The notes: generated by a model from the sequence alone, not told the origin. 63,080 nt of DNA from Gemmatimonadales bacterium (GCA_035279705.1 DATEHG010000095.1:1-63080), one strand, 5' to 3'. Numbered from the stretch's first letter, positions 1,347 to 54,590 are shown. Numbers and translations are program-made.

Positions 1347-1646
1347 GAAGGGTCTGGTCGGGGTTCAATCGGGAACGAGGGCCGCGGGCCGCGGCTGGCA
1401 GGTGGTAAGCTATATGGCCTTGGCCGGTCCGGCTCCCCCGCACCGGTCTCTGATTCTGCCTGACTCCCCCTCCATCTGCGGTCCGTCCCAGCCCAGTAGT
1501 TCGCGTCCCGCAAGAGGTTGCGGATCGACGATGGCGGGCATGGCGGTTGCACCCCTTCGGGGGCTGTCCGGTCTGTGCCAATACGTGGGGCAGGCGAGTC
1601 TCCCGATCGAGCCGTCATGCCACGGCTGACCAACGCGGATTAATTC

Positions 1647-2231
1647 ATGCGCTTCCTGTACACGCTCGGCGTGATGTACATCGCGCTCTGCGCCGCCCTG
1701 CTCTACCGGGGTCAGGCGCCGGCGCCCGTACCCGCGCCCTCCACCCCCACGCACCCGAATGCGGCACCGCCCCCCGGCAACGCCGCAGAGTGGTACGGTC
1801 AGATCAAGCCGTATTGCAACAGCCTCGAGGTCGAGTCGCACCTGCGGTACCAGCCGCCGCCGGACGGCGCCGAGGGAGCGGGCTACGCCGCGGCCTGCCT
1901 GGCCCTTGCCGGGAAGATCGATCAGGCGCGCGAGCAGATCGTGGCGCTGCCGGCATCGCAGCGCACCGCGGCGGTGGGAATCGTCTTCGAAATCGGCCAT
2001 CCGGTCGCGGATGCGGGGGACGACAAGTCCGCCGGTCCAATCATGGAGCTGGTCGTGGAGTTCTGGCCGAATCACTACATGGCCCTGTATCACGCCGGCG
2101 CGTCGGAGTTCATCCTCGGCGAGCCGGACCTGGCCCGGAAGCATCTGGAGTCGTTCCTCCAGTACTACCACGAAAACGATGGCTGGCGCACCAATGCCCT
2201 CGTAATGCTGAAGAAGCTCGGCGCCGAATGA
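1647..2231 (+). CDS. Membrane-anchored or secreted TPR-like helical-repeat protein
   Basis: N-terminal hydrophobic helix, Pro-rich linker, TPR-like segment (ALYHAGASEFILGEPDLARKHLESFL). Stop overlaps the next ATG (ATGA). Confidence 0.7.
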   Translation: MRFLYTLGVMYIALCAALLYRGQAPAPVPAPSTPTHPNAAPPPGNAAEWYGQIKPYCNSLEVESHLRYQPPPDGAEGAGYAAACLALAGKIDQAREQIVALPASQRTAAVGIVFEIGHPVADAGDDKSAGPIMELVVEFWPNHYMALYHAGASEFILGEPDLARKHLESFLQYYHENDGWRTNALVMLKKLGAE

Positions 2232-4087
2232 CGGCACCCGGGTCGCCCTACCTGAGTGAAGGCGCCCTGCTCGCCGGTCGCTACCTCATCGGCGGCGAAC
2301 TGGGCCGGGGCGGTTTCTCGGTGGTTTACCGGGGCACGGACCAGTCGATCCGTGGTGCCGTTGCCATCAAGCTGCTCGTTCCTCCGCCGGCCGGCGCCGC
2401 GCTGGCGCGGGAGCGGATGCGGCGCGAGGTCCAGGCCGTCCGCGGCCTGTCCCACCCGAATATCGTGCAGGTCTACGACTTCGCCGAGGATGGCCCCTGG
2501 AGTTTCGTCGTCATGGAGCTGGTCAACGGGCCCGACCTGGCGGAGCGGGTGCGGCGCCGCGGTCCGCTCAGCCCCGAGGAGACGGTCCAGCTCGGCCGCG
2601 AACTGGCGCAGGGACTGGCCACGGCGCATCGCAAGGGTGTGATCCACCGCGACGTGAAGCCGCAGAACATCCTGCTCGATGCCGAAGGCCACTCCCGCCT
2701 TACGGACTTCGGCTCGGCCAAACTTGAAGGCGTCACTGGGGTGACCCGCACGGGCGGCCTGGTCGGCACGCTCGATTACCTGGCCCCCGAACTCCTGGCC
2801 GGCCGCCGGGGTGATGGCCGCGCCGATCTCTACGCCCTCGGACTCACCCTGCATTTCGCCCTCACCGGCCGGCTGCCCGAGCGCCTGTCCGCGCACGCAC
2901 CCGTGGGCGCGGCGCCCGAAGGCCACCGCCCCTCCCGCTTTGCCGGCGCGGCCCGGATCCCCGGCTGGCTGGATGACCTGGTTGCCCAGGCCACCATGGC
3001 GGCCCCGGAAGAGCGGTTTCCGTCGGCCGCGGCTTTGGACGAGGCGCTTGCCGGTGGTGGCAACACGCGAAGCGCACGTCTCGCCCTGGTGGAGGCAGCC
3101 GATCGTTGCGCCCTCTGCCGGGAAGTGGACCCGTTCGGACTTGGCCTGTGCGTGCGCTGCGGGGGCACTTCGCCCAGCGCCGCGGAAGCGGCCATCGTGG
3201 TGCGACCGCCGGCTTCGCGGAGTGCGCGGGAATCGGTTCGGATGGCCGTGCATCAGCTGCTCAACGGCCGCACCAGCAGCGATGCGGCCGATGCCGCCGC
3301 GGCCGGAGAGCGCGCGCTGCTCCGCATTCCGGCGGCGAGTGAATCCGCCGTGCTCGAGCACCTGGCGGGACATGGCGTGCCGGCCCAGGCGGTCGCGCAC
3401 CAGCGCCTCTGGGCCGAGCTGCCCTTCCGCTTCTACGCGCTGGTGACCGCCATCGCAGGGGTGGGCCTCGCGGCAGGCACCGTGATTCCCCTGGTAGGGT
3501 GGGCGAGTCCGGCGGTTGCCGGCCTCTGGTGGATGCTGGCCTTCCGCGAAATCCGCCGTCCAGCGCTGGCATCGGTGGGCCTCGCCACGAAGTTGCCGCC
3601 CGATGTCGAGCGCGAAGTCGTGTCGGCCCTCACCGAGCTGCCCTCCGGCACCGCGCGTGACCTGCTGGCCGACGTGGTGCGCACGGGCCAGCGGATGTCG
3701 CAATCGCTGAGTGCTGCGAGCGGTGAGGACCGGAGCGGGGAAATCGGCCGCGTCCTTGGCGGTGCCAGCCGCGCCGCACGCCAGATCGCGGGTTTGGAGG
3801 AGAGTCTCACGGGTCTAGAATCGCGGCCCGAATGGAGCAGCGATCCGAGACTCATCGGGGCGGCCGACGCGCTGGAACGGGGGCGGGACCGGCTGGTGCA
3901 GGAGATGCTCGAGATTCTGACCTCGCTGGGCCGGACCCAGGGGCGCCTGGCCCTGGCAGGGGCAGCCGCGGCCTCGGGGGGAGATGACCTCGCCACGTTG
4001 GCCGCCGACCTCGAGCAATCGGTGACGTTGCGGGCCGAGGCGCGGCGTGAAGTGGAGGAGCTGCTGACGCCTAGCGGAGTGCCTTGA
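2228..4087 (+). CDS. Hanks-type Ser/Thr protein kinase with Cys4 motif, TM hairpin and helical C-terminal tail
   Basis: LGRGGFSVVY, VAIK, HRDVKPQN, DFG and GTLDYLAPE motifs. True start is the ATG at 2228, coupled to the upstream stop; the track's extension to 1547 overlaps a real gene. Confidence 0.9.
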   Translation: MTAPGSPYLSEGALLAGRYLIGGELGRGGFSVVYRGTDQSIRGAVAIKLLVPPPAGAALARERMRREVQAVRGLSHPNIVQVYDFAEDGPWSFVVMELVNGPDLAERVRRRGPLSPEETVQLGRELAQGLATAHRKGVIHRDVKPQNILLDAEGHSRLTDFGSAKLEGVTGVTRTGGLVGTLDYLAPELLAGRRGDGRADLYALGLTLHFALTGRLPERLSAHAPVGAAPEGHRPSRFAGAARIPGWLDDLVAQATMAAPEERFPSAAALDEALAGGGNTRSARLALVEAADRCALCREVDPFGLGLCVRCGGTSPSAAEAAIVVRPPASRSARESVRMAVHQLLNGRTSSDAADAAAAGERALLRIPAASESAVLEHLAGHGVPAQAVAHQRLWAELPFRFYALVTAIAGVGLAAGTVIPLVGWASPAVAGLWWMLAFREIRRPALASVGLATKLPPDVEREVVSALTELPSGTARDLLADVVRTGQRMSQSLSAASGEDRSGEIGRVLGGASRAARQIAGLEESLTGLESRPEWSSDPRLIGAADALERGRDRLVQEMLEILTSLGRTQGRLALAGAAAASGGDDLATLAADLEQSVTLRAEARREVEELLTPSGVP

Positions 4088-4517
4088 GGGCCGCCGCGTC
4101 CCACTCGAGGATCCGGGGTGGATCCACTCCGAAATCGCTGTAGCGGAGCCAGGTCGGCGTGACGCGGAAGTAGGTCAGCCCCGGCCAGCTCTGCCTGACC
4201 ATACCATCGGGAAAACGGGAGAGATAGAGAGCGGTGAGCGCCGCCAGGGCCTCACCCGAGGGCTCGTCCGCGACGCCCTCGTACTGCACGGTGCCCAGCT
4301 CGCCGTCCGCCGGGCCGCCGACGACGAAGGCCACTCTCGCGTCCCGGCGGAGATTCTGCGCCTTCCGGGTGTCCCCCAGCGTGTCGAAGAACAGTTCGAA
4401 CCGGTCGGACACCACGATACCGACGACGGCGGCCTGTGGCGCCCCCACCGGGGCGACGGACGCTTCGACGGCGTGGTGGTGCCTGCGCATGAACGCGAGG
4501 AGGTCGGCCCGGGTCAC
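4071..4517 (-). CDS. Pyridoxamine 5'-phosphate oxidase-like (split-barrel flavin-binding) family protein
   Basis: PQAAVVG...FDTLGDTRKAQNLRRDARVAFVV pattern and 148-aa size fit PPOX-like proteins. Confidence 0.8.
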   Translation of the reverse strand: MTRADLLAFMRRHHHAVEASVAPVGAPQAAVVGIVVSDRFELFFDTLGDTRKAQNLRRDARVAFVVGGPADGELGTVQYEGVADEPSGEALAALTALYLSRFPDGMVRQSWPGLTYFRVTPTWLRYSDFGVDPPRILEWDAAALKALR

Positions 4518-4629
4518 CAGTGCAGGCTAGCGCAAATCTCGCAGTGGTCAACATCCCCCTGAAAAATACCGGCGCTGGAAGTCCCCGGGGACCGCCAGCG
4601 CCGGTCACGACCCGCTGCCGGCGGGAGTC

Positions 4630-5040
4630 TCAGATCGCGTGATGCGGGATGTCGGCGTGCCAGTGGGCCGTGGCGCCAGGGATCGTGGCAGTCGTGCTGT
4701 CGCCGGCATTGGCGGAGCCGGTGCTCCAGTTGACAACGAGCCTGGCGCTTCCCGCACCGGTGCTGTGCCCGTAGAGGTGCGCCTCCGCCGAAGCGGGAAT
4801 CGTGGTGGAAAAGGTCTTCGTCCAGGTGGTCCCGGGCGCGTTGACCTTGATGAGCGTTCCGTGCCCGTCATCGTAGGTCACGGAATCGAACACTACTGCC
4901 GGGCTCGACGAAGTGGACGCCAGGTAGGAAATCCCCGCTGTGGCCGGACCATTCGAGCCTCCGCCGCTGCCGCCGCACGCGCTCAAGGCACCAGCGGCAA
5001 GCACCATCACCAAGCACAACCGACGTGAAGAAGACGCCAT
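4630..5040 (-). CDS. Small hypothetical lipoprotein
   Basis: Lipobox LSAC after a basic and hydrophobic signal, Gly/Ser linker, beta-rich body. Confidence 0.7.
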   Translation of the reverse strand: MASSSRRLCLVMVLAAGALSACGGSGGGSNGPATAGISYLASTSSSPAVVFDSVTYDDGHGTLIKVNAPGTTWTKTFSTTIPASAEAHLYGHSTGAGSARLVVNWSTGSANAGDSTTATIPGATAHWHADIPHHAI

Positions 5041-5082
5041 GCACGACTCCTGATTGGGGGTTTGAACAGCAAACGCGGGCAG

Positions 5083-7332
5083 CTACTCGTCCTGCTTCGG
5101 CGGTCCCACCGGAGGGGTAACCCGCTTGCGGATCTCGGCCAGCGCCAGCACGATCGACTCCCGCGAGGCGAGCAGGTCCTGCAGCACGAGATCCGGGTGC
5201 CGCCCCGGAGTCGTGCCGGATTCCCGCCGCCCTTCCGGCTCGAGGAAGGGCCACAGCCGCTGGCGGACCCGCTCCGGGAGCACGCTCTCCAGGTACTCGA
5301 GCGCGGTGCCCCGGAGGTTCCGGTCCCTGGTATGGAGCCCGTGGTAGGCCAGACGGAGCGGCTCGGCCGGGAGGATCAGCGCCAGGAGCGTGAACACATG
5401 CTCCAGGCTGCGGTTGGCCTGGAACCGCAGAAACTCCGCCTCCATGGGCGGGGCACCGATGTCGTCCTGGCTGTCGATGAGCTGGCGGCTCTCCCACACA
5501 CCGCGGCCCACCGCCACCTCGTTGAGCACCACCTGCAGCAGGCGTTCACGATCGACCACCAGCCCGGGGATCTGGCTCCGGAGGCGGTGCAGCGCCCGCC
5601 CGGCCCGGTAGCGGACCTCGAAGCGCCTGTCGTCCAGCGCGCGGAACAGCCCCTCGAACACTTCGGGCGTCGGCCACTCGATCAGCACGGGAATCAGCCG
5701 GCGCCGGATCGCGAAATCCTCGCCCTGGTCCAGCAAGTGAGTGATGAGGACGCCCGCTTGCGCGGCCGGCAGGGCCTTGAGGGCCGCGCCGGCTTCCTCC
5801 GCCACGGCGTCCCAGGCCAGCAGGGAGATCGTCGGCTCGATCAAATCGGCGGTCAAGGGGCCGGCGGCCAGGGCGGCGCGCACCTCCTCGGGCACCGTGC
5901 TCTCGAACGCGCGGCGCCGCCGATCACCGGGATTCCACGCCGGTTCCGAATCCACCGGCGCCGTAGTTTCGCCGGATTGTCGCGGAGCCGCCATCGGTTC
6001 CAGCTGGCTCAGGTCGAACCCGCCGACCGATTGCAGCAGGGCGCCGGCGTTGTCGGCTTCGACGGGCACCGCTCCCGAGCGCAGGGCGAGGCTTCGCTCC
6101 AGGGCGCCGACATATCCGCGGTGAAGCTGCCGGGCCACCGCCAGCGCCAGGATGGAGACCAGGATGGTGAAGGCGAGGAGCGGCGGCACCGGAGTCCGGA
6201 GCGGGAGCAGCAGCGCCAGCTGAATGAGAAGCGCGGCGACCGCATCGCCCATCCGGGCGGCGGCTACATCCACGAGGAGCTTGGTCGCCCGTTTTTCCTT
6301 CGGCGGGACCGGGGCAAAAAGCAGCTCATAGGCTCCGCGGAACAGCGAGTTGCGGAGCACGATCTCGGTGCCGCGGGCGATCAGCATCGAGGGAAGACCC
6401 GCGAAGAACAGGCCGCCGAGGGCACCGACGGAGACGCCCGCCGGCAGCAAGGCGGCGCTTCGGGCAATGCCAAGCCGGTTGAGGACCCGCTGCAGCGCCG
6501 TGGTCTGGACCACGATGGTGAGCAGCGCCGTGACGGTATAGAAAACGGCGAAGAGTCTGAGCAGTTCGCCGCCGCCGGGAAGGCTGGCCGTGGCGCGTGC
6601 CTTGAACACGAAGTCGAGCAGGCCCTCCGCCGCGGCGCTCAGGGCAATGAGCAGGACCAGGTTGCGGAGGTACGCCGAGGTCCGGAACGCCTGCCGGGCG
6701 GAGCCGGAGGGTTCGATGGCCGGATCGGCGGAACCTCGGCTGCGGCTGCGCTCGAGCGCTGCCGCCGGTGCAGGCCGCACTCCCAGCACCAGGATGGCCG
6801 AGAGGTAGTGCAGTATGGCCAGCACGGGCAGCATGGCGGTGACCGGCAGGCTGCCGCCGATCTGGGCGGGGAGAATGCCGCCCAGCAATCCCCCAAACGA
6901 GCCTCCCGCCGCAATCCTCCCGATCGTCGCCCGCGCCGTCCGGGCATCGAACCGCTCGGTGACCATGCCCCAGAAGCCCGAGATGAGCAGGGCGCCGAGG
7001 CAGCTGTAGTGGATGTAGAACAGCACGGCGGTAATGGAATGAAACCGGCAGGCGAGGAACCACTCGATCAGGAGCAGGGTGCCGCTCAGGGCAAACAGGT
7101 GCGGCACCAGTCGTCCTGGTCCTATCCGGGAGAGCACCTTCGACAGCACGATGGCCACGAGGGTGGAAAGGCCCGCGGCCAGGATGACCATGCGGGGGAG
7201 CGCGGCCACACCGTAGGTGGAGAGGTAGAGCGCGTCGCGCGTCGCTTTGCCGGCCAGCTGGAAGGCCACCATGACGGCGCTGGCCGCGGTGGCGGCCAGG
7301 GCGGCGTTGCGGTCGGAGAGTTGACGGAGCAC
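5083..7332 (-). CDS. NTT/TLC (Npt1/Npt2-like) MFS nucleotide-transporter homologue fused to HEAT-like repeats
   Basis: About 12 TM segments with KATRDALYL, FWG..TERFD.R.A and R.SLFRGAYELLF.PVP..EKRATKLL motifs of NTT-like proteins. C-terminal alpha-helical repeats (DDRRFEVRYRAGRAL, LRGTALEYLE). Confidence 0.75.
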   Translation of the reverse strand: MLRQLSDRNAALAATAASAVMVAFQLAGKATRDALYLSTYGVAALPRMVILAAGLSTLVAIVLSKVLSRIGPGRLVPHLFALSGTLLLIEWFLACRFHSITAVLFYIHYSCLGALLISGFWGMVTERFDARTARATIGRIAAGGSFGGLLGGILPAQIGGSLPVTAMLPVLAILHYLSAILVLGVRPAPAAALERSRSRGSADPAIEPSGSARQAFRTSAYLRNLVLLIALSAAAEGLLDFVFKARATASLPGGGELLRLFAVFYTVTALLTIVVQTTALQRVLNRLGIARSAALLPAGVSVGALGGLFFAGLPSMLIARGTEIVLRNSLFRGAYELLFAPVPPKEKRATKLLVDVAAARMGDAVAALLIQLALLLPLRTPVPPLLAFTILVSILALAVARQLHRGYVGALERSLALRSGAVPVEADNAGALLQSVGGFDLSQLEPMAAPRQSGETTAPVDSEPAWNPGDRRRRAFESTVPEEVRAALAAGPLTADLIEPTISLLAWDAVAEEAGAALKALPAAQAGVLITHLLDQGEDFAIRRRLIPVLIEWPTPEVFEGLFRALDDRRFEVRYRAGRALHRLRSQIPGLVVDRERLLQVVLNEVAVGRGVWESRQLIDSQDDIGAPPMEAEFLRFQANRSLEHVFTLLALILPAEPLRLAYHGLHTRDRNLRGTALEYLESVLPERVRQRLWPFLEPEGRRESGTTPGRHPDLVLQDLLASRESIVLALAEIRKRVTPPVGPPKQDE

Positions 7333-7336
7333 GGCT

Positions 7337-9892
7337 TCAGATGCCGAAGCCGGCTCTCACATAGAGCTTGGCGCTGTTCTCGCGGCTGGAGGCGATCGCC
7401 GCCGAGATGACGTTGGCGGGGCCGACGAAGGCGATCCAGATACCGCCGCCGAAGGCACTGTGCCACTGGTCGGAGTGTTCACCGGCGACGAACACCCGGC
7501 CGGCGTCCGCCAGGCCGAAGATCCCGACGTCGGCTGGCAGGATGAGCGTGGCATGGAACAGCGGGATGCGGAGCTCGGTGGATCCATAGGCCGACGCGTC
7601 GCCGGCGTAGCGGTCCTGCTCACCCAGCCGGACGGTGTTCACGCTGCCGATGTAGGCGGCGTCGAAGAAGGGATAATTCCCCCAGACCTGCTTGCCCCCG
7701 ACCCGCAGCGAGAGCGTAGGACTGAGCGGAAATCCCTTCGGGGTGAGATAGGCGGATGCCTCGCCGTGAATCTCGCCGAAGGTTTCCTGCACGTCCCACC
7801 ATGGCGGATAGAATCCGCCACCGAGGTCGAGCAGCCCGCCCGTGGTGGCGGCATTGATCCGGTTCCGCCCGTCGAGCCGGTACTGGGCCCGGATTCCGAT
7901 CTCGCCGAACTTTCCGCTGCCATAGGGATTGATGGTCGCGAGGAAGCGGTCGGAGTGTTCGTCCGTCGAGACGTACTTGAGGATCGGCCCCAGCTGCAGC
8001 GTGCCTCTCCGCGCAATCGGCAGCAGCACCGCGGGGGCAATCCCGTACTGCTGCTGGACCAGGCGATAGTACTCGCTGTTTCCGCCGGCCGACGAGGTCT
8101 CGTTGCCGAGACCGTAGAAGCGCAGCACCTCAATACCGCTCGCCGCGGCTCCCAGGACCCAGCCGATCCGGGAATTCTCGTCGTGCCATTCCCCCCGATA
8201 GTCCACCCGGGCTCTCCACGGGCCCGTGGCAATACCCGCGCGGAACCGGTGCTGGCTCGAGAAGGGGCGCTTGCGGAAGCCGTAGTAGGTGAGGGTCCGC
8301 ACCCCACCGATGAACAGGCCCAGGTCCGGCCCGTAACTGGCCCAGGTCGCCGGCTGCCAGCGATGGCCCCAGTCCCTCGGCGGGAGTTCCGTCGGCTTCT
8401 TTTTCGCCGGGAGGATGTAGGCCCGGCGATCGATTGAGCTGGCGTCGGAACCCTCGGTCTTGCCGGCCGCACCGTCGGCGTCGTAGAAGCGATTCTTGCC
8501 GCTGGAAGAGGAGTCGATCAGCCGGTCCGACCCGGAATCCCCGAGGACGCGCACCGTGATGTCGCCGCCGCTGCCGCGAACCGTGGCGGTATCGTTGCCG
8601 CGGCCGAGAAAGAGCCGGATGTCCTTCGTCTCACCGGGCAGGAAGCGGCGCTGGAAGTACGGCGCGCCCGTCGGCGCCCCGCCCCGCGCGACGGCCACCG
8701 TGACGCTCCCGTCGGGATTGCGATCGACCGTGGCGACGTCGGCCTGGTCCGTGGCGTGAATGTCCACCTGCCCGGAGAGCAGGTGATAGAAGTTGCGGGT
8801 CGCTTCGAGCAATTTGTCCCGCCGGGCCTTGAGCCGGGCCGTGAGCACCGCCCCCTCGACCGCGTAGTGCTCCGGCGGCAGGGCGCGGACTGCATCGTCG
8901 ATGACGCTGTCCGTCATGGCGGCCTGCAGGCTCTTTCCTACCGAGTCGAACACTTCGCTGGTGAGGCCGACCAGGAACCGGCGGTCGAGCTCCCGCCCGT
9001 TCCACATCTGGCCGGCCATGTTCGCGTACTTCGAGTCGTAGTTGACCAGTTGCGGCAGGGTGGGCCGGGCAAAATCGAGCAGGAACCCGTCGAACCGGAC
9101 GAAGGCCTGGTCGCGGTCGAGGGGGATCGGGCGCCAGCGGCGCGGCACCGCGTCGTCATAGCGGGCCCAGCGCCACTGGTCGCGATGCCGGTCCCAGTCG
9201 CCGATGAACATGTCGAAGAGCCGCGCCAGCAGGAACGCCCGGGCATCGACCTGGTCGTCGTCGCTCCGGTCGGCCCGGTCGAACAGGGTGTCGCTGTTGA
9301 TGATCTCGGTGGCTCCGTGCCAGTGGGCCGCGGGCCCGCCGCCGCCCACCCGCTCCTCGAGGATGCCCATGAGCCCGGCAAACACCGGACGGTACTCGCC
9401 CAGGATCGGGCTGTCGGGCATGACGACGATGAGGGAGCTGTTGTGCAGGATGCTGGTGGCGTCCATCAGGCGGGCCACCACCACCGGCGCCAGGGGGTTG
9501 GCGGAGCTGATCTGGTCCTGCACCACCCGGTTGGCGATGGTGCCGCGCAACTCCTCGGGCAGCGTGAGCGAGGGATCCTTGTCGATCGAGCGGAAGAAGT
9601 ACTGGTGCCCGTCCTTCGTGCCGAGCCGGAGGCCCGTGGTTTCCTGGCCGCCGGTGCGGCCCAGCGGGGTGAGCCCGCCGCCGAAGTGCTCGAGATCGAG
9701 GACCTCGACGGTGGCCGGCGTGTACCAGAGCTGGCGGTAATCCTTGCCCAGGAAGAAGCGCTGAATGCCGTCGGCCCTGTAGCGCGGCGCCGGAGCCTGG
9801 ACCACCGTGGCCGGCGGTCTGCCGGTGCTGTCCCCCGGCACCTGGGCCGCGAGCGGCGCACCCACCGCCAGCAGCAGGACCGCTCCCCTCAC
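7337..9892 (-). CDS. Signal-peptide protein: atypical kinase-like domain fused to a C-terminal Omp85 (BamA/TamA-like) beta-barrel
   Basis: Signal peptide MRGAVLLLAVGAPLAA/Q. N-terminal GGQETTGLRL, RSIDKD, GDWDRH and PLDRDQAF motifs. C-terminal amphipathic strands, loop-6-like TVRLGEQDRYAGD and terminal LYVRAGFGI. Confidence 0.75.
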   Translation of the reverse strand: MRGAVLLLAVGAPLAAQVPGDSTGRPPATVVQAPAPRYRADGIQRFFLGKDYRQLWYTPATVEVLDLEHFGGGLTPLGRTGGQETTGLRLGTKDGHQYFFRSIDKDPSLTLPEELRGTIANRVVQDQISSANPLAPVVVARLMDATSILHNSSLIVVMPDSPILGEYRPVFAGLMGILEERVGGGGPAAHWHGATEIINSDTLFDRADRSDDDQVDARAFLLARLFDMFIGDWDRHRDQWRWARYDDAVPRRWRPIPLDRDQAFVRFDGFLLDFARPTLPQLVNYDSKYANMAGQMWNGRELDRRFLVGLTSEVFDSVGKSLQAAMTDSVIDDAVRALPPEHYAVEGAVLTARLKARRDKLLEATRNFYHLLSGQVDIHATDQADVATVDRNPDGSVTVAVARGGAPTGAPYFQRRFLPGETKDIRLFLGRGNDTATVRGSGGDITVRVLGDSGSDRLIDSSSSGKNRFYDADGAAGKTEGSDASSIDRRAYILPAKKKPTELPPRDWGHRWQPATWASYGPDLGLFIGGVRTLTYYGFRKRPFSSQHRFRAGIATGPWRARVDYRGEWHDENSRIGWVLGAAASGIEVLRFYGLGNETSSAGGNSEYYRLVQQQYGIAPAVLLPIARRGTLQLGPILKYVSTDEHSDRFLATINPYGSGKFGEIGIRAQYRLDGRNRINAATTGGLLDLGGGFYPPWWDVQETFGEIHGEASAYLTPKGFPLSPTLSLRVGGKQVWGNYPFFDAAYIGSVNTVRLGEQDRYAGDASAYGSTELRIPLFHATLILPADVGIFGLADAGRVFVAGEHSDQWHSAFGGGIWIAFVGPANVISAAIASSRENSAKLYVRAGFGI

Positions 9893-11295
9893 ACCGCTCC
9901 CGTCTTCTGGGCATATCCCCTGCCGACCAGCAGGGCCAGCCCGACCCAGACCAGGGCCAGCGCCAGGTTGACGCGGGCGAAGCCGGTCGTGCCCAGATGG
10001 AGTGAAGTCGTCCCGAGGTAGACCAGGATCGCGGAGAGCACGTCGCCGAAGCGGACGAAGAAGGAGTCGATGGCCTGCTTGGCCTTGTACTTCTCCTGCC
10101 GGCTGGTCGGCAGGAACAACACGTTCCGCACCGTGTTCTGCAGCGAGTAGTCCGTGGCGTTCTCGGCCGTCTTGACCCAGCGCACCACGACCAGGATCGG
10201 GGCGAACGCCAGGAATGCGTAGCCGCTCAGCGCGAGCAGCGGAAGCACCATCACGGCCACCTGCACCCCGAGGTACTTGAGCAGCCGCGACACCACGAAG
10301 AGCTGCAGCAGCATGCCCAGCAGGTTGACCCCGAAGAAGAAGTTGGAATAGAACTCGCCGATGTACTCCTCCTCGGTCAGGCCGTGCGCGGTACCGTGGG
10401 CGACGGCATCCTGCGCGGCCCGGGCGACGGTCTTGCCCAGGATGTACTCGCCGGTCGTGTTGACCCAGTTGAGCACCAGGATCATGACGGCGATCGCCAA
10501 CAGGTACCGGCTGGCGAAGACCAGGCGGAACGTGCCCCTGCGCCCGGTGGTGCCGGTGAACGAGACGGTGGTCTTGGCGTCGGGACCCTTGCCCTCGACC
10601 TGGTATTCCCCGGTCGCGGCGGGGAGTTTCTCGGTCGTGAACCGCGCCGGTATCCCGCTTTCGCAGCGGGCCCGTTCGCGGCGGTCCACCCGGGCGCCCA
10701 GCCAGTTGGCCATCACCAGCATGGCAGCGGCCACGAGCAGGAGCTGGGGCACGCCGATCAGGGGAATCAGCCTGCCGGTGAACGCGCTGCCGACCACGGC
10801 CCCGCAGGACGCGCCAAAACCGACGATCGGGAAGAGGCGCTCGCCCTGTTCCTTGGTGTAGAGATCGTTGGCGAAGGACCAGAACTGGGCCACGATCATC
10901 AGGTTGAAGATGCCGACCCAGAGAAAGAACACCACACCGATGTTGGCATGGGCATGACTGAGCACGTAGAACGCGACGAGACAGGCGGTGAAGAAGCCGG
11001 TGACAACGTTGAGCAGCCGCCGGCGGGGGAGGCGGTCCGCGAGGGCTCCATAGACGGGGACGAGCAGGAGCAGCAGCATCGCCTGCCCCGCGGCCGCGTA
11101 CGATTTCACCTCGGCGCCGCCGCCGGCCAGGATCAGCGCCTCGCGCACCGGCTTGATCACATAGTAGGCGGCGAGAAGCAGGAAGACGTTGAAGCTGAGC
11201 AGGATCGCGGACATCCCCTCCTGCTCATGCACCTCGGTGAAGATGCTGAGCAGTCGGTCGAGCAGCGGCCGATCCCGCTCCGCGGCCGCCGTCAT
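9889..11295 (-). CDS. NTT/TLC (ATP/ADP translocase-like) MFS transporter homologue
   Basis: YYVIKPVREALIL, AQFWSFANDLYTKEQGERLFP and DYSLQNTVRNVLFLPTSRQEKYKAKQAID motifs match the TLC/NTT family. About 12 TM segments. Confidence 0.85.
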   Translation of the reverse strand: MTAAAERDRPLLDRLLSIFTEVHEQEGMSAILLSFNVFLLLAAYYVIKPVREALILAGGGAEVKSYAAAGQAMLLLLLVPVYGALADRLPRRRLLNVVTGFFTACLVAFYVLSHAHANIGVVFFLWVGIFNLMIVAQFWSFANDLYTKEQGERLFPIVGFGASCGAVVGSAFTGRLIPLIGVPQLLLVAAAMLVMANWLGARVDRRERARCESGIPARFTTEKLPAATGEYQVEGKGPDAKTTVSFTGTTGRRGTFRLVFASRYLLAIAVMILVLNWVNTTGEYILGKTVARAAQDAVAHGTAHGLTEEEYIGEFYSNFFFGVNLLGMLLQLFVVSRLLKYLGVQVAVMVLPLLALSGYAFLAFAPILVVVRWVKTAENATDYSLQNTVRNVLFLPTSRQEKYKAKQAIDSFFVRFGDVLSAILVYLGTTSLHLGTTGFARVNLALALVWVGLALLVGRGYAQKTGAV

Positions 11296-12704
11296 TCCGG
11301 GCTGGCTGTCACGAACCGGAGCTGGCCGCGGCGTCCGACCTGGAGAATGGCCGGGGCGTCGGCCGCGACCTGGCCCAGGGCTGTCCTCAGGTCCGCCAGG
11401 GTCCGGGTGGGAATGCCGTTGACGGAGTAGATCACATCACCCGGCCGGAGCCCGGCGGGGCGGGTCGCGTCACTCGACGCCGCCGCGACCACCACCCCCC
11501 ACGCCTCGCGGGCGCCGGGAATGGCGCGGGCCAGTTCCGGGGTCACATCGAGGCCCAGGATGCCGAGCGCCGGAACCAGGTTCTTTTCCGGGGTGACGAG
11601 ACTGCGGAACTCCTCGCCATCGTCCTTGCGCTCCACCACGGCAACCTTGGCCGTGAAGCGCTGCGGACCCCGCACCACGTCCAGGTTCACGGTCTCGCCG
11701 ACCTTGCGGCGGTACAGGGTCACATCCATCTGGCGGCCGTTTTCCATCGGCTTGCCGTCCACGGCCATGATCATGTCTCCCGGCTGCAGCGCCGACTTGC
11801 CGGCGGGGCCGGCGGGGTCGACATCCGCCAGCACCACGCCCCATTCGCGGGGCAGGTGAAGTCCGGCCGCGAGCTCGGGAGTCACGGTCTGGGCGAAGAC
11901 TCCGATCGACCCGCGGCGCACCCGGCCGCTGGCCCTGATCTGGTCGGTCACGAACCGGGCGATGTTCGACGGCGCCGCGAAACCGAGGCCCTCATTGCCT
12001 CCCGACTGGCTCAGGATGAGGGTGTTGATGCCGACGACGGCGCCATCCTCGTTGACCAGGGGACCGCCGCTGTTGCCGGGATTGATCGGGGTATCGGTCT
12101 GGATATAGACCATCCGGTCTTCTTCGCGGAGCTGGCGTCCCAGCGCGCTCACGACGCCCATGCTGACGCTGCCGGCGAGGCCCAGCGGGCTGCCGAAGGC
12201 CATGACGATCTGCCCCGGTGCCAGCGAATCGGAGTCGGCGAATTTCGAAAACGGCAGGCCGGCGAGATCGATCTTGAGGACCGCGAGATCCGTCTCCTCG
12301 TCGGTGCCCACCAGCGTCGCCGAGACCTCCTGCGACACCGGCGCCACCGCGGAGCGCCCGGGCACACTGGCCACGGCCGCGCGGGGCAGGATGACCTTGA
12401 AGCGGCGGCCCCCCTCGACGACATGGTTGTTGGTCACGATGTAGCCGTCGGCGCTCAGAATGACCCCGGAGCCGGTGCTGCGCTGGGTGCCGATCAGCGA
12501 GGCGGCGGTGCCATTGCCGCCGGACACCGGGCCATACGAGACGACCCGGATCTGCACCACCGTGGGTTCCACCTTGTCGACGACCCGCTGGAGCGCCCGG
12601 CTCAGGTTCTTCAGCTCTCCCGCCGCCGGCTGTGCCTGCGCCAGGACGCTGCCGGGGAGCAGCGCCGCGACCGCCACGAGGGCGGCACCAAGAGTACGCC
12701 TCAC
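11292..12704 (-). CDS. HtrA/DegQ-family trypsin-like serine protease with two PDZ domains
   Basis: TNNHVV (His), DLAVLK (Asp), QTDTPINPGNSGGPL (Ser) and PDZ-like C-terminus. GTG start at 12704 gives a signal peptide (MRRTLGAALVAVAALLPGSVLAQ) and overlaps the upstream stop. Confidence 0.92.
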   Translation of the reverse strand: MRRTLGAALVAVAALLPGSVLAQAQPAAGELKNLSRALQRVVDKVEPTVVQIRVVSYGPVSGGNGTAASLIGTQRSTGSGVILSADGYIVTNNHVVEGGRRFKVILPRAAVASVPGRSAVAPVSQEVSATLVGTDEETDLAVLKIDLAGLPFSKFADSDSLAPGQIVMAFGSPLGLAGSVSMGVVSALGRQLREEDRMVYIQTDTPINPGNSGGPLVNEDGAVVGINTLILSQSGGNEGLGFAAPSNIARFVTDQIRASGRVRRGSIGVFAQTVTPELAAGLHLPREWGVVLADVDPAGPAGKSALQPGDMIMAVDGKPMENGRQMDVTLYRRKVGETVNLDVVRGPQRFTAKVAVVERKDDGEEFRSLVTPEKNLVPALGILGLDVTPELARAIPGAREAWGVVVAAASSDATRPAGLRPGDVIYSVNGIPTRTLADLRTALGQVAADAPAILQVGRRGQLRFVTASPE

Positions 12705-14404
12705 GTGTTGGCCGCCAGTTCCGAGTCGGCAGACTCCGGCTCGGGCGTCCACCCTTCCTCCATCGTGCGGCTCAGCAGCAGATCGCAGCGGGTCGGTGCG
12801 CCGCGGGCCGACTCGGGATGGTGCCGGTGCCACCACCGCTGGGCCTTCTCTTCGTTCCAGGGCTCGCCCGACAGGACGGTCGACAGGCGGTGCCCCAGCT
12901 CGGCCGCGGTGGGGGGCCGCTCGTCCGCCCGCTTGGCGAGGCAGGCCAGCACCAGGGCGTCGAGGGCAGGAGGGATCTCGAGTTCGATCCGTTGCGACGG
13001 GGGGACCGGAGGAGTCTGCGAGTGAGCGATCATGAGTTGGATGGCGTTAGGGGCTTCGAAGACCAGCTGCCCGGTCAGCAGCCAGTAGGCGACACAACCG
13101 AGGGCGTAGATGTCGACCCGGTGATCGATGGGGCCATCGCCCCGCACCATCTCGGGAGCGATGTAGGCCGGAGTGCCGGCCGTGGCGTCGGGGGCGGTGA
13201 GCGTGAAGTCCCGGCGCTCGAGCTCGCCCCTGCCCTTGACCAGGCCGAAGTCGAGCACCTTCACGAAATCGGTCTGCAGTCCCAGCCGGCAGGTAAAGAT
13301 GTTGGACGGCTTGATGTCCCGGTGAATCAGCCCGCGCTGGTGGGCTTCCTCCAGCGAGTGGCAGACCTGCCGCAGCAGGTAGACGACCCGCTCGGGCGGC
13401 AGCGGCCCGAACCGCTCGACCAGCGATTGCAGATCGAGCCCGTCGAGCAACTCCATGACGAGAAAAAAGGTGCCGTCGTCCGCCACCCCGAAGTCGTACA
13501 GCCCGATGGTGTGCGGTGAACGGAGCGAAGCCGCCGCCTCCGCCTCGCGGCGGAACCGCTCCACGATGACCCTGGCCCCGTCGGTCGAGGAGTTTCCCAG
13601 CACCTCGGCCCGGATCACCTTGACCGCCGCCGGACGGGCCAGCATCTGGTGGGTGCCGCGATAGACCTCGCCCATCCCGCCCTTTCCCAGCACTTCCTCG
13701 AGACGGTAGCTGCCCAGTTCACGGGCCCGCCGTACCTGGTGGCTGAGCGCCCGGATGATCTTCGCCGGGACCACGGCCACGAACGCGGCGATGTACGTCG
13801 GCACGAAGTCGAAGATGTAGTAGAACGCGGAGTGATCGAACGCGACCCCGCGCAGGTGCGTGATGAACAGGGCGAGCGGGTCCATGGTGGCCGCGATCAG
13901 CGACAGGGCCAGCGTGCGCTCGGGGCCGGCCGGTACGATGGCCGGATACGCCACGATGATGAGGCAGAGCCAGGAGACCCGGGGCGCGAGCGGCGGGGGC
14001 ACCCACTGCGAAACGATCGCCACCATGAAGCAGATGATGAGCATGAACCCGGCGCTCAGGTCCAGCAGCAGTTCCGGGCGGTGGCGAAGCCGCCTGGCCA
14101 GGACGGCAAGGGTCAGCGACAGGACCAGTCCCGTGATCGAAATGGGAAGCCCGGGATACGGCCAGAGGCCGTCGATGATCCCCATCTGCCCGAGCAGCGG
14201 GGCCACGATCCCGTTGGCCAGCAGCGCAAAGCTCCACAGCGCCGAGAACACCAGCGACACGGCAAAGACCCGCCGGCAGGTCTGCAGCAGGACGTCCGGA
14301 GGCAGGCTCGCGCCCGAGTCCCGGGAAGGCTGGGAAGCCTCGACCGGGGTCGGGGGCCTGCGGCGCAGGCGGCGGCGGTGGGTTTGCTCGGTGGCTTCGG
14401 CCAT
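12701..14404 (-). CDS. Membrane Ser/Thr kinase with N-terminal multi-TM domain (paralogue 1)
   Basis: LGKGGMGEVY, AAVK, HRDIKPSN, DFG and GTPAYIAPE motifs after about 5-6 TM helices. Confidence 0.92.
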   Translation of the reverse strand: MAEATEQTHRRRLRRRPPTPVEASQPSRDSGASLPPDVLLQTCRRVFAVSLVFSALWSFALLANGIVAPLLGQMGIIDGLWPYPGLPISITGLVLSLTLAVLARRLRHRPELLLDLSAGFMLIICFMVAIVSQWVPPPLAPRVSWLCLIIVAYPAIVPAGPERTLALSLIAATMDPLALFITHLRGVAFDHSAFYYIFDFVPTYIAAFVAVVPAKIIRALSHQVRRARELGSYRLEEVLGKGGMGEVYRGTHQMLARPAAVKVIRAEVLGNSSTDGARVIVERFRREAEAAASLRSPHTIGLYDFGVADDGTFFLVMELLDGLDLQSLVERFGPLPPERVVYLLRQVCHSLEEAHQRGLIHRDIKPSNIFTCRLGLQTDFVKVLDFGLVKGRGELERRDFTLTAPDATAGTPAYIAPEMVRGDGPIDHRVDIYALGCVAYWLLTGQLVFEAPNAIQLMIAHSQTPPVPPSQRIELEIPPALDALVLACLAKRADERPPTAAELGHRLSTVLSGEPWNEEKAQRWWHRHHPESARGAPTRCDLLLSRTMEEGWTPEPESADSELAANT

Positions 14405-14510: not shown

Positions 14511-16100
14511 TCACCCCTCGCCGGGACGATTCACCCGCCACCACTGGGCCGCCTGCTCCTGGGTCCAGCCGCTGCTGTCCATCACCTCGAGAGCGCGGGC
14601 CAGCTCGGTGGCGCTCGCCGGCCGCTCCGCCGGCGCCTTGGCCAGCAGCCGGAGCACCAGCGCCTCGAGTGTCGGCGGAATCGGGAGTTCCACCCGCTGG
14701 GAGGGGGGAACCGGGTTGTCGTGCAGGTGCTTGGCGATGATCTGAATGCCGCTGCCGCCATCGAAGACGAGCTGGCCGGTGAGGAGGAAGTAGGCCACGC
14801 AGCCCACGGCGTAGAGATCCGTCCGGCCATCCACTTCCTGCCCCATGGCCAGCTCGGGGGCCATATAGGCGGGGGTGCCCGGGGTGAGGCCGGTCGCGGT
14901 GGCCAGCGAGTTCTCTGGCGCCTTCTGATTGAGCGATTTGACCAGCCCGAAGTCCAGCACCTTCACGAAGTCATACCGCACGCCCAGCCGGCCCAGGTGG
15001 ATGTTGGCCGGCTTCACATCCCGGTGCACGAGTCCGGCGGCATGCGCCTCCTCCAGCGAGTCGCACACCTGCATCAGGATCTGGATGACCCTCGCGGCGG
15101 GGAGCGGCCCCTTCTGGCGCACGAGCGTTTCCAGGTCCATCCCGTCGAGCAGCTCCATGACCAGGTAGAAGGTGTCGCCCCCGGTGACGCCGAAGTCATA
15201 CAGCTGGACCGTGTGCGGCGAGCGGAGGCTGGCCGCCACCTCCGCCTCGCGGCGGAATCGCTTGACGGCCAGCAGGGCCCCCGAGCCCCCCGCGTTCTTC
15301 ATGACCTCGGGACGGATGAGCTTGATGGCCGCCGGCCGCGCCAGCATCAGGTGGGAGGCGCGGTAGACCTCACCCATCCCACCCTTGCCCAGCAGCTCGC
15401 CCAGCCGGTAGCTGCCCAGCTCGCGGGCCTTGGCCACCTGCTCGCCCAGCTGGGTCATCACGTGCGAGATCACCACGGCCACGCAGGCGATGAGGTAGTC
15501 CGGGTAGTGCATCACCAGGATGTTGCTGAGCGGCCCGAAGTCCCAGCGCCCGAACTGCCGTTCCAGCAGCATGCCGACGGGGCTCATCGAGGCGGCGAGC
15601 AGGGAGGCCACGAGGGTCTTGCCCGGCGTGCTGGGAATGATCGCCGCGAAAATCAGGATGACGGGCCCGATCCAGGTGATGGTCGGCACCACCGCCGTCA
15701 CCCCGGGGATGAACACGAAATGCCAGCTCAGCCCCATCGCGAGTCCCGAGAACACCATGTAACAGAGGCCGAGGTCCAGCACGAAACGGGGATTGCGGTC
15801 GGGGCGGCGCGCGTAGGTGAACAGCGCAAGCGAGACCACGACAACGACCACCGCGATCCAGTCCGGAATGTCGAAGGCCAGGTACTTCGGGTCATGCCGG
15901 CTCAGGGACCAGAGGGCCACATGGTAGGCTACGGTCCCGACGAACCAGAGCACCGCCCCCATGGCCGAGATGATCGCCAGCCGCTTCGAAGCCTCCCGGA
16001 GGATGTCCTCCGGAATGGCCCGGCGCCCGACCCGCCGGGTGGCACCCGCCGGCGTCGAGCTGCCGACAGGCGGACCGATCATCTGGGGATTGTCCATCAT
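14511..16100 (-). CDS. Membrane Ser/Thr kinase with N-terminal multi-TM domain (paralogue 2)
   Basis: LGKGGMGEVY, AAIK, HRDVKPAN, DFG and GTPAYMAPE motifs. Confidence 0.92.
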   Translation of the reverse strand: MMDNPQMIGPPVGSSTPAGATRRVGRRAIPEDILREASKRLAIISAMGAVLWFVGTVAYHVALWSLSRHDPKYLAFDIPDWIAVVVVVVSLALFTYARRPDRNPRFVLDLGLCYMVFSGLAMGLSWHFVFIPGVTAVVPTITWIGPVILIFAAIIPSTPGKTLVASLLAASMSPVGMLLERQFGRWDFGPLSNILVMHYPDYLIACVAVVISHVMTQLGEQVAKARELGSYRLGELLGKGGMGEVYRASHLMLARPAAIKLIRPEVMKNAGGSGALLAVKRFRREAEVAASLRSPHTVQLYDFGVTGGDTFYLVMELLDGMDLETLVRQKGPLPAARVIQILMQVCDSLEEAHAAGLVHRDVKPANIHLGRLGVRYDFVKVLDFGLVKSLNQKAPENSLATATGLTPGTPAYMAPELAMGQEVDGRTDLYAVGCVAYFLLTGQLVFDGGSGIQIIAKHLHDNPVPPSQRVELPIPPTLEALVLRLLAKAPAERPASATELARALEVMDSSGWTQEQAAQWWRVNRPGEG

Positions 16101-16133: not shown

Positions 16134-17741
16134 TCAGGCGGGGCGGTGTGCCTCCCACCAGCGGCGCGCGTCGGCGGGAGTCCAGGGCGCATGCGGTACG
16201 GTCGCGAGGGCCTCGGCCAGGGCCGCCGCGGATGGCGGCCGGTCGGCGGGCCGTTTGGCGAGACAACTCAGGATGATGCGGTCCAGTTCCGGCGGCACCG
16301 GCATCTCGGACAAGGTCGAGGGGGCGGCCGGCTCGTCCCGCATGTGCCGGGCGACCATTTCAACCGCGCCGTCGGCCTCGAAGACCAGGCGGCCCGTCAG
16401 CAGGAAGAATCCCACGCAGCCGAGCGAGTACAGGTCGGACCGGCCGTCGACCGGTTCAAGCCGCGCCGCTTCCGGCGCCAGGTAGGCGGGAGTTCCGGCG
16501 ACCGAGCCGACCGCGGTGGCCAGTGTCTGCTCCCTGGCCCGCTGGTCGATCATCTTCACCAGGCCGAAATCGAGGACCTTGGCCCAATCCCAGGCGTTCG
16601 CCAGCCGGCCGAGGTGGATGTTGGCCGGCTTGATGTCGCGGTGAACCAGCCCCGCCCCGTGCGCCTCCTCCAGGGACTCACAGACCTGGCGCAGGATGCT
16701 GATGACGCGATTGGCGGGCAGCGGGCCCTTCCGGCGCACCAGCGTCTCGAGATCCATCCCTTCCAGCAGCTCCATCACGAAGTAGAGCGTGTGATCCTCG
16801 GCGACGCCGAAATCGTACAGCTCCACCGTGTGCGGCGAGCGGAGACTGGCCGCCGCGGTCGCCTCGCGGTGAAAACGGCGCACCGCCATCTGGGCGCCCT
16901 CGCCGCCCGGCTCTCCCAGCATCTCGGGACGGATCAGCTTGATGGCGGAAGGACGGGCCAGCATCCGGTGGGTGGCCTTGTACACCTCGCCCATCCCCCC
17001 CCTGCCCAGCAGCTCACCGAGGTGATAGCTCCCCACCTCCCGCGCCGCCTGCACCTGCTTGCCCAGCCCATAGATCATCCGCGCCGCGAACCAGGCAAAG
17101 CCCGCCGAGGCCAGTGGGCCGAAGGTCTGCTCGAACCAGGTCCCCCAGTCGGGCACATGGATCAGCCCGCGGGACTGCAGCAGGTACAGTGAGAGTGGCG
17201 CGGTGAGCGCCGAAGCCACCGCCGCCGCCAGCATCCGCCTGGGCGGCCCCGGCACCATGAGCGGAAAGACGATGACCACTGCCGGCACCCAGGTGAGGTT
17301 GGGCAGCACTCCCTTCGCCGCATAGTAGGACCAGTAGGTGACGATCGAAATCAGGAAACAGATCTCGACTTCAAAAAGCAGGGCAAAGGTATGCAGCACG
17401 CCGGCGCTGATCTTCGTGCTGCGCGAAGCCAGCCAGAGCACGCCGGCGCCCAGCACCGCCACGGCGTTCACCCACTGGAAGTCCCCGGTGCGCACCAGGT
17501 CCACCGGCATCCTGCCGCCGGTCCGGGCCATGATCGCGCCCAGGACCAGGTAGATGACGATGTCGAACCCGAACGCGAGGGCAAACAGCGCCGTCATCAT
17601 CCGGACTCGGCCGCGGACCTGGCCCAGCAGTTCGGGAGGGAGTGTTCCCGAAAATCCTTCCGGACGCGCCTGGACTACCCGCGTCCTGGCGGGGGTGGGG
17701 AGGACAATCGTGGATGAAGTCGTGGGATCAACGGCCGCCAT
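16134..17741 (-). CDS. Membrane Ser/Thr kinase with N-terminal multi-TM domain (paralogue 3)
   Basis: LGRGGMGEVY, SAIK, HRDIKPAN, DFG and GTPAYLAPE motifs. Confidence 0.92.
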   Translation of the reverse strand: MAAVDPTTSSTIVLPTPARTRVVQARPEGFSGTLPPELLGQVRGRVRMMTALFALAFGFDIVIYLVLGAIMARTGGRMPVDLVRTGDFQWVNAVAVLGAGVLWLASRSTKISAGVLHTFALLFEVEICFLISIVTYWSYYAAKGVLPNLTWVPAVVIVFPLMVPGPPRRMLAAAVASALTAPLSLYLLQSRGLIHVPDWGTWFEQTFGPLASAGFAWFAARMIYGLGKQVQAAREVGSYHLGELLGRGGMGEVYKATHRMLARPSAIKLIRPEMLGEPGGEGAQMAVRRFHREATAAASLRSPHTVELYDFGVAEDHTLYFVMELLEGMDLETLVRRKGPLPANRVISILRQVCESLEEAHGAGLVHRDIKPANIHLGRLANAWDWAKVLDFGLVKMIDQRAREQTLATAVGSVAGTPAYLAPEAARLEPVDGRSDLYSLGCVGFFLLTGRLVFEADGAVEMVARHMRDEPAAPSTLSEMPVPPELDRIILSCLAKRPADRPPSAAALAEALATVPHAPWTPADARRWWEAHRPA

Positions 17742-19719: not shown

Positions 19720-19723
19720 GACG

Positions 19724-54451: not shown

Positions 54452-54490
54452 TGATACGATCAGTGCAGTGGGAAGGAAGGGAAACCAAGT

Positions 54491-54520: not shown

Positions 54521-54590
54521 CCAGAAACTAACAAGTGCCGGAGACTCTCGCCCCCGGCACTCGAAATGAAATCGCATCCACGCCGCAGAA

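Follow-up and report, generated by a model that had tools for sequence, protein, structure and literature searches.

A family of Omp85 barrels with a kinase-fold domain, linked to NTT-type carriers in Gemmatimonadota

Can bacteria drive energy-requiring reactions beyond the cytoplasm? ATP is taken to be absent from the periplasm, and we know of no established system dedicated to periplasmic protein or lipid kinases. The question is raised by a gene cluster at positions 5083-12704 of a 63,080-nt stretch of DNA (the window; GC content 69%) from a Gemmatimonadales bacterium. In this cluster, two carriers of the TLC/NTT family, one of them apparently fused to HEAT repeats (NTT and NTT-HEAT), flank an exported protein with an N-terminal kinase-fold domain and a C-terminal Omp85-type barrel, which we call KOMP. 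An earlier note on this DNA had proposed that the carriers export ATP and recover ADP to fuel an extracytoplasmic kinase anchored in the outer membrane. The present analysis defines a large family of Omp85 barrels that carry a conserved kinase-fold domain outside Pfam and fall into about 3,000 clusters at 50% identity. It also defines the recurrent partners of KOMP, among which an either/or pattern suggests that a donor reaches the periplasm through the inner membrane. It is quite possible, if short of probable, that KOMP and its partners make up a phosphotransferase module that faces the periplasm and receives its donor through the inner membrane, as ATP here and possibly as polyphosphate elsewhere. 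The cluster would then represent the form that a conserved envelope module of Gemmatimonadota takes in one lineage, and the question can now be reduced to assays on four proteins.

The kinase-fold domain and the barrel of KOMP

With KOMP residues 26-505, Pfam returned no family even at an E-value of 0.1, the HipA_C, CotH and PI3_PI4_kinase models included, and NCBIfam returned none for the N-domain. A phmmer search with full-length KOMP against PDB sequences found no match, and Foldseek with the full-length model found BamA/TamA barrels only. Because the barrel matches hid the N-domain in this search, it was folded separately with AlphaFold2 (AF2), using 60 orthologues from the fetched loci described below. 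The model has a predicted local distance difference test (pLDDT) score of 88.5 and a predicted template modelling score (pTM) of 0.91. Its top Foldseek matches are H. pylori CtkA (3akl; E 1.8e-5, probability 1.0, template modelling score 0.53 normalised to the target), HipA (4pu4), Bacillus CotH (5jd9) and human PI4KIIa (4hnd). From the model, the N-domain is confidently predicted to adopt a HipA/CtkA/CotH/PI4KII-like protein-kinase-like fold. The earlier note had described a kinase-like N-domain with the motif GDWDRH, and both these matches and the alignment to the CtkA loop agree with it.

GDWDRH lies at residues 231-236 and is invariant in the relatives. The motifs of the kinase-fold domain are the P-loop-like RTGGQETT, FRSxDK105, GD232WD234RHxxQ239W and PxD259RD261QAF. 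The first resembles the HipA P-loop. In a sequence-profile alignment, LIGDWDRHxxQW falls on the catalytic loop of CtkA, GNFDRHNGNW, and D234 is thereby the likely equivalent of the catalytic Asp, D155 in CtkA. In the KOMP loop, the Asp and the His are present, an invariant Gln (Q239) occupies the position of the metal-binding Asn, N160 in CtkA, and D259 and D261 are conserved downstream. Conservation reaches at least 95% at K105, D126, D232, D234, R235, D259 and D261 among 129 representatives of 50%-identity clusters. About 2,985 such clusters match the family at an E-value of 1e-3 or below, and most members are about 850 aa long with the same layout. One Acidobacteriota homologue, a 1,151-aa open reading frame (ORF) at L097:6910-10365 on the minus strand, has an extra N-terminal region of about 300 aa with no Pfam match.

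KOMP could instead be a pseudokinase scaffold, or an enzyme of an atypical kind (an AMPylase or polyphosphate-dependent transferase, for instance), with chemistry other than ATP-dependent phosphorylation. The Gln that replaces the loop Asn throughout the family would suit this explanation, as would one relative with DRG in place of DRH and the link of a sister KOMP clade to polyphosphate synthesis. Some kinase-fold families, such as SelO and SidJ, do catalyse non-kinase reactions. However, the near-invariant acidic and basic residues at catalytic positions favour some kind of catalysis, and nucleotide-dependent variants would still need a nucleotide supply, so that they overlap with the phosphotransferase reading. 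We consider this alternative very unlikely.

The barrel is recognised both by sequence and by structure. Residues 603-848 match Pfam Omp85 (PF01103) at 32.2 bits against a cut-off of 24, the NCBIfam model Omp85_fam also matches, and Foldseek finds BamA/TamA at an E-value of about 3e-7. About 16 barrel strands are predicted, with low pLDDT in the last third of the model. In the AF2 models, the linker of residues 376-500 is all-beta, built from some 10 short strands and three GxGxD turns and lacking the helices of POTRA, and Pfam gives no match to a POTRA domain in KOMP. In PlpD of Pseudomonas aeruginosa, a patatin-Omp85 protein of 'type Vd', the N-terminal enzyme domain was found experimentally to be periplasmic (PMC11116518). 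Because of this precedent, the kinase-fold domain of KOMP most likely faces the periplasm rather than the cell surface; of the 'envelope or surface' module in the earlier note, the surface is thus the less likely part.

Carriers, partners and their linkage to KOMP

To follow KOMP beyond the window, 80 loci encoding its relatives were fetched and their neighbours were mapped by tblastn and by clustering of called ORFs; totals are given over 81 loci. NTT carriers lie beside KOMP in 30 of these loci, which belong to two or more KOMP clades and differ in gene order. The link is also found in Krumholzibacteriota (L030) and Acidobacteriota (L103); in the latter, KOMP has 33% identity and the NTT orthologue is a divergent neighbour. 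Linkage of NTT and kinase-barrel genes in other genomes, on which the earlier proposal depended, is therefore found in varied gene orders, in other phyla and, as described below, in genome-wide co-occurrence. The commonest partner is a metallophosphoesterase of about 380 aa (MPE; 43 or more loci), followed by an STK1-type Ser/Thr kinase with multiple transmembrane segments (35 loci). Further neighbours are NTT-HEAT (23 loci), NTT (22), a DUF4956 membrane protein (22), a CYTH-polyphosphate kinase 1 fusion (CYTH-PPK1; 16), a TPR Ser/Thr kinase (13) and HtrA (7-8).

The two kinds of neighbourhood separate on a tree of the KOMP kinase domain. The NTT-linked clade, with NTT linkage in 24 of its 28 rows, has a Krumholzibacteriota sequence in basal position, and a DUF4956/PPK1-linked clade comprises 33 rows, 25 of them DUF4956-linked. 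A mixed clade holds a second NTT-linked sub-clade with the order KOMP-STK-(HtrA)-NTT and with NTT-HEAT on the opposite strand. Both contexts together occur in none of the 81 loci. The NTT label on the tree forces at least five changes on well-supported branches, and no shuffle out of 500 was as clustered. Loci with KOMP alone might have been paralogues, but this was rejected, since KOMP is single-copy in the window genome and these loci form separate clades with other partners on the tree. The Acidobacteriota KOMP neighbourhoods showed no conserved partner apart from one NTT.

The same pattern appears in whole genomes. KOMP is encoded in 69 of 201 Gemmatimonadota genomes. An NTT orthologue (at least 49% identity) is present in 25, of which 22 have KOMP (Fisher p 4e-9), and DUF4956 in 85, of which 48 have KOMP. 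NTT or DUF4956 is carried by 61 of the 69 KOMP-positive genomes, and among these the two partners are negatively associated (odds ratio 0.14, p 7e-4). By coordinates collated by hand, NTT lies 5 kb or less from KOMP in 15 of the 22 genomes, and about 33 of the 48 have DUF4956 at a distance of up to about 8 kb. The NTT-KOMP linkage is real and robust. The module core consists of KOMP, MPE and the multi-transmembrane kinase, and the inner-membrane partner takes two mutually exclusive forms. This either/or pattern of NTT and DUF4956 plus PPK1 fits alternative routes of donor supply. For the ATP supply by NTTs that the earlier note had envisaged, the outcome is mixed: the NTT link speaks for it, whereas the sister clade has DUF4956 and CYTH-PPK1 in place of NTTs.

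Both carriers are NTT/TLC homologues, as previously noted. They exceed the Pfam TLC gathering cut-off of 21 bits, with 45.5 bits for NTT (P0003), which has an MFS match too, and 22.7 bits for NTT-HEAT (P0001), the weaker member. A profile of 18 NTT orthologues matches solved NTT1 structures (9j3n, E 2.6e-11; 9j3j, E 3.4e-8), and NTT-HEAT weakly matches the AtNTT1 structure 9j3j (E 4e-4). Motifs common to the NTT orthologues and solved NTT1 are Y-x-I/V-K/R-x-x-R/K-D/E in transmembrane segment 1, FWxFAN and a C-terminal K-x-K-x-K-x-AID. The Lys residues of the last motif (K402, K404 and K406 in NTT) are invariant among orthologues and, by alignment, lie near the putative equivalent of AtNTT1 K527. 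NTT also has a Thr-rich central loop. In NTT-HEAT, about 12 transmembrane segments are predicted within residues 1-400. Conservation in 19 orthologues extends over the C-terminal 350 aa, and residues 532-586 match HEAT_2 at 26.5 bits, just below the cut-off of 27.7 (E 7.7e-6). This putative HEAT-repeat domain is probably cytoplasmic. Relatives of NTT carry the JGI label 'AAA family ATP:ADP antiporter', but neither carrier reaches the cut-off of the ATP:ADP antiporter equivalog TIGR00769 (40 bits for NTT and 21.9 bits for NTT-HEAT, against 387.2). By their sequences, the two appear to be true but divergent TLC/NTT members (PF03219; TC 2.A.12).

This divergence, together with matches to MFS_1, leaves some room for another cargo. 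KOMP could be a lipid kinase acting on an outer-membrane lipid or lipopolysaccharide component, with the phosphoesterase reversing the modification and the carriers moving a non-nucleotide cargo such as a phosphorylated or lipid-linked precursor. The best structural matches of the N-domain include PI4KIIa, and the closest fusion of an enzyme to an Omp85 barrel, PlpD, both acts on lipids and changes membrane lipid composition (PMC11116518). A periplasmic lipid kinase would, however, still require a phosphate donor. Moreover, the carriers retain NTT-specific motifs and not generic MFS ones, and no lipid-biosynthesis genes recur near KOMP. Modification of a lipid or glycolipid therefore seems quite unlikely.

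MPE has a lipobox/lipoprotein signal and all metallophosphoesterase motifs, and Pfam and NCBIfam gave no family for this subfamily. In a natural fusion of 1,335 aa (P0261), MPE forms the N-terminus of a full KOMP with kinase-fold domain and barrel. The sole MPE orthologue of the window genome (55% identity; lipobox; GD, GDNxY, GNHD and GHDH) lies not in the cluster but at C224:1757-3112 on the plus strand, in a 3.3-kb contig that ends 165 bp past the gene and limits the view of its neighbourhood. Thus, the earlier grouping is borne out for the NTTs and the kinase-barrel protein, but the most conserved partner is absent from the window locus and encoded elsewhere in the genome.

CYTH-PPK1 (cluster c6; e.g. 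L031, L042, L048, L056, L062, L080) consists of polyphosphate kinase 1 preceded by some 450 additional aa, in which a CYTH (triphosphate-tunnel) domain is found. It adjoins KOMP and the DUF4956 protein in its 16 loci. The VTC polyphosphate polymerase is likewise of the CYTH/TTM type, and the fusion unites two polyphosphate-related catalytic folds. DUF4956 was not found in the window genome, and the PPK1 of this genome is without the CYTH extension. In about 10 loci, an exported 281-aa protein with no Pfam match (cluster c8; L025, L028, L035, L050, L055, L063) is encoded between MPE and KOMP or DUF4956.

Full-length STK1 orthologues are found in NTT and DUF4956 contexts alike. In the window, three membrane Ser/Thr kinases had been reported directly upstream of the cluster, and Pkinase matches and a transmembrane scan confirm them. 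STK1, STK2 and STK3 have 4-7 predicted transmembrane segments in the first 215 or so residues, followed by a C-terminal Pkinase domain (residues 233-501 in STK1, E 8e-42). The paralogues are 43-46% identical to each other, and a fourth copy lies at a contig end (C18:1-1518). STK1 is the paralogue that is conserved beside the module. HtrA matches Trypsin_2 (E 9e-33), PDZ_2 twice and TIGR02037 at 343 bits, below its cut-off of 416, and its translation contains the triad-type motifs TNNHVV, DLAVLK and GNSGGP. The earlier note had counted HtrA as part of the system; since it adjoins KOMP in only 7-8 loci, of one sub-clade, it was rejected as a core member.

The gene order of the cluster (Table 1) and its junctions, read directly, are as first described. 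GTGA overlaps join STK1 to HtrA (12704-12701, with the GTG start of HtrA at 12704) and NTT to KOMP (9892-9889), and an ATGA overlap joins HtrA to NTT (11295-11292). Between the TGA stop of KOMP and the GTG start of NTT-HEAT, 4 bp (agcc) intervene. STK1, HtrA, NTT, KOMP and NTT-HEAT are translationally coupled, and co-expression in stoichiometric amounts is suggested by the overlaps of start and stop codons. A 9,237-nt contig from an independent mine metagenome spans window positions 4500-13426 with 34 substitutions and zero gaps, so the arrangement is no assembly chimera. KOMP, NTT and NTT-HEAT each occur once in the window genome, all within the cluster. The nearest homologues are all from Gemmatimonadales metagenome-assembled genomes, and the organism is found in soil, rhizosphere and mine habitats.

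Table 1. Coordinates of KOMP, its parts and the adjoining genes in the window
Feature	Coordinates	Strand	Description	Basis
NTT-HEAT (P0001)	5083..7332	-	749 aa; TLC/NTT-type MFS carrier fused to putative C-terminal HEAT-repeat domain	
KOMP	7337..9892	-	851 aa, exported; signal peptide, kinase-fold domain, beta-rich linker, Omp85 barrel	
KOMP residues 26-375	8768..9817	-	predicted kinase-fold domain	AF2 model, Foldseek, hidden Markov model alignment, conservation
KOMP residues 376-500	8393..8767	-	all-beta linker	secondary structure of AF2 models
KOMP residues 505-851	7340..8380	-	Omp85-type beta-barrel	Pfam, NCBIfam, Foldseek
NTT (P0003)	9889..11295	-	468 aa; TLC/NTT-family carrier, 12 predicted transmembrane segments	
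HtrA	11292..12704	-	HtrA/DegP-type periplasmic serine protease; signal peptide, two PDZ domains	
STK1	12701..14404	-	Ser/Thr kinase; N-terminus with multiple transmembrane segments, C-terminal Pkinase	
STK2	14511..16100	-	tandem STK1 paralogue, 46% identity to STK1	
STK3	16134..17741	-	tandem STK1 paralogue, 43% identity to STK1	

Such an operon could also reflect co-regulation only, in which all the genes answer one envelope signal, relayed by the membrane kinases and HtrA, while the carriers and KOMP act independently. This explanation would accommodate the classical role of HtrA in envelope stress, the solitary KOMP genes of Acidobacteriota and the 7 genomes in which NTT and KOMP are unlinked. 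It accounts less well for a linkage that survives rearrangement of gene order, KOMP identities of about 45% and phylum borders, or for the mutual exclusion of the NTT and DUF4956/PPK1 contexts. The MPE-KOMP fusion and the stoichiometric co-expression suggested by the overlapping codons also speak against it, and we regard mere co-regulation as distinctly unlikely.

The remaining observations concern the surroundings of the cluster. No RNA runs containing the window sequence were found, and a promoter and terminator scan gave signals no better than shuffles. Two ORFs of 136 and 129 aa downstream of the cluster match no Pfam or NCBIfam family. An 846-aa Ser/Thr kinase is encoded on the opposite strand at 1547-4087 (plus strand; Pkinase at residues 248-445), and the density of kinases in the first 18 kb of the window is unusually high. 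Directly upstream on the same strand, 17794-19737 (minus strand) encodes a 647-aa protein with Big_1/invasin-like Ig repeats, which recurs in none of the KOMP loci. It overlaps by 14 nt with 19724-21769 (minus strand), which encodes a 681-aa protein with weak M66/reprolysin metalloprotease matches; this metalloprotease-like protein recurs in only 6 KOMP loci. Farther away, a 1,043-aa ORF at 51446-54577 (minus strand) contains Peptidase_M1 at residues 399-543 and has no Pfam Omp85 match at an E-value of 0.1.

Proposed supply of a donor through the inner membrane

Gene architecture, folds and motif conservation are established, as is a linkage that recurs with either NTTs or DUF4956 plus PPK1, the two being mutually exclusive. 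The reading that we tentatively prefer is built on these findings. KOMP would be an outer-membrane Omp85 barrel that holds an active-looking phosphotransferase domain on the periplasmic side. Both NTT-family carriers would lie in the inner membrane as NTT1-type exchangers that pass cytoplasmic ATP out and take periplasmic ADP and inorganic phosphate (Pi) back, in the direction imposed by a free-living cell. In this way, the kinase-fold domain would have a phosphate donor at its disposal although the periplasm itself produces none. NTT1 carriers perform an electroneutral exchange of ATP for ADP plus Pi, with a conserved Lys in contact with Pi or with the gamma-phosphate of ATP (PMC2606016). The kinase-fold domain would turn ATP to ADP, and the MPE lipoprotein would strip the phosphate and free Pi for co-transport with ADP, so that the NTT1 stoichiometry could close the cycle. 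The multi-transmembrane Ser/Thr kinases would probably be regulators on the cytoplasmic side, with the Thr-rich loop of NTT or the HEAT domain as a possible target, and HtrA may be a lineage-specific addition. Since the sister KOMP clade has DUF4956 and CYTH-PPK1 rather than NTTs, the idea can be widened from ATP to any phosphoanhydride donor. The most specific form of the proposal is a periplasmic phosphorylation cycle of diderm bacteria, in which an outer-membrane-anchored atypical kinase and the MPE lipoprotein are powered by an exported donor, either ATP through reversed NTTs or polyphosphate through DUF4956 and CYTH-PPK1. This form we hold to be somewhat unlikely.

Transport direction is the step at which an opposite course has to be weighed. 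The characterised bacterial NTTs all act as importers (PMC5381601, PMC2606016). The cluster might accordingly belong to a salvage or uptake module, in which MPE and KOMP process external or periplasmic nucleotides, polyphosphate or phosphoesters, NTTs import nucleotides or phosphate, and PPK1 stores phosphate in the sister clade. The kinase-fold domain would then bind or process a nucleotide or phosphate and would be no ATP-consuming kinase. It is in keeping with salvage that the most conserved KOMP partner is a phosphoesterase lipoprotein, that the PPK1 of the sister context is a phosphate-storage enzyme, and that the habitats of the organism can be phosphorus-limited. Strict conservation of the catalytic-type Asp and Lys residues and of the P-loop is nevertheless unneeded for mere binding. 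Membrane Ser/Thr kinases and HEAT fusions are atypical of Pho-type scavenging loci, and neither pstSCAB nor phoBR is among the recurrent KOMP neighbours. Salvage is unlikely in our judgement.

Several points weigh against the donor-supply reading itself. The topology of KOMP is based solely on the analogy with PlpD. In the catalytic loop, the kinase Asn is replaced by the invariant Q239, and the His is missing in some family members (P0220). The substrate of the carriers could differ from ATP and ADP, because their scores lie far under the antiporter equivalog cut-off, and ATP export by them is pure inference. Exported ATP, at about 500 Da, could also leak through porins. As to linkage, 47 of the 69 KOMP-bearing Gemmatimonadota genomes have no NTT orthologue, and NTT and KOMP are unlinked in 7 of the 22 genomes that have both. 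The co-occurrence statistics were computed without correction for shared ancestry. KOMP is usually alone among housekeeping genes in Acidobacteriota, so that an adjacent supplier is not strictly needed. Finally, the topology of KOMP, the nucleotide substrate, the transport direction, the kinase activity and the target are all inferred.

KOMP and its partners among known systems

Every part of the cluster comes from a known superfamily, and PlpD is a precedent for the fusion of an enzyme to an Omp85 barrel. PlpD and KOMP both have an N-terminal enzyme domain and a C-terminal 16-stranded Omp85 barrel. They differ in that the enzyme has a kinase fold in KOMP and a patatin lipase fold in PlpD, that an all-beta linker takes the place of POTRA, and that KOMP is part of a multi-gene module. 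Of the type Vd layout (patatin, POTRA and Omp85 barrel), KOMP has neither patatin nor POTRA, and only the order of enzyme and barrel is common. Even if the supply idea is wrong, the KOMP family is a new class of enzyme-bearing Omp85 proteins alongside PlpD.

With HipA, CtkA, CotH and PI4KII, KOMP appears to have in common the fold, the conserved Lys and Asp residues, the alignment of the catalytic loop with that of CtkA and the HipA-like P-loop GGQETT. Unlike these proteins, KOMP is exported and anchored in the outer membrane, has Gln in place of the loop Asn and falls outside the Pfam HipA, CotH and PI3_PI4 models.

A comparable gene set is found in Gram-positive bacteria, where pel loci co-encode an exported CotH-like kinase, a VTC-like polyphosphate polymerase and DUF4956 (10.1101/768473; 10.1101/2024.04.20.589940). 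The sister KOMP clade resembles this accessory set in combining an exported atypical kinase, DUF4956 and a polyphosphate enzyme with a CYTH/TTM domain. The Gram-positive set, however, belongs to monoderm hosts, has no Omp85 barrel and uses a VTC-like polymerase, whereas the sister clade has CYTH-PPK1 and the lineage of the window has NTT and NTT-HEAT instead. In the most specific form of the proposal, the periplasmic phosphorylation cycle, the logic of donor export would explain the sets of CotH, polyphosphate polymerase and DUF4956 in Gram-positives.

The carriers of the window share TLC membership and signature motifs with the NTT1-type exchangers of Chlamydiae, Rickettsia and plastids, but are very divergent from them (40 against 387 bits) and come from a free-living host. 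In architecture, NTT-HEAT appears to match the HEAT-fused NTTs in the catalogue of Major et al. (2017), a type that included 2 Gemmatimonadetes sequences and was assigned no function (PMC5381601). In an incomplete search, no literature on the kinase-Omp85 family or on its link to NTT carriers was found. To our knowledge, the NTT and NTT-HEAT proteins of free-living bacteria have been functionless on record since the 2017 catalogue, and they would gain a first function if the proposed phosphorylation cycle is real.

A system with a similar logic exists in eukaryotes. The SLC35B1/AXER ATP/ADP exchanger supplies ATP to the lumen of the endoplasmic reticulum or Golgi, which has no ATP synthesis of its own and where Fam20C-type lumenal kinases are opposed by phosphatases. 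The resemblance would be functional and conceptual only, as the eukaryotic exchanger belongs to an unrelated transporter family.

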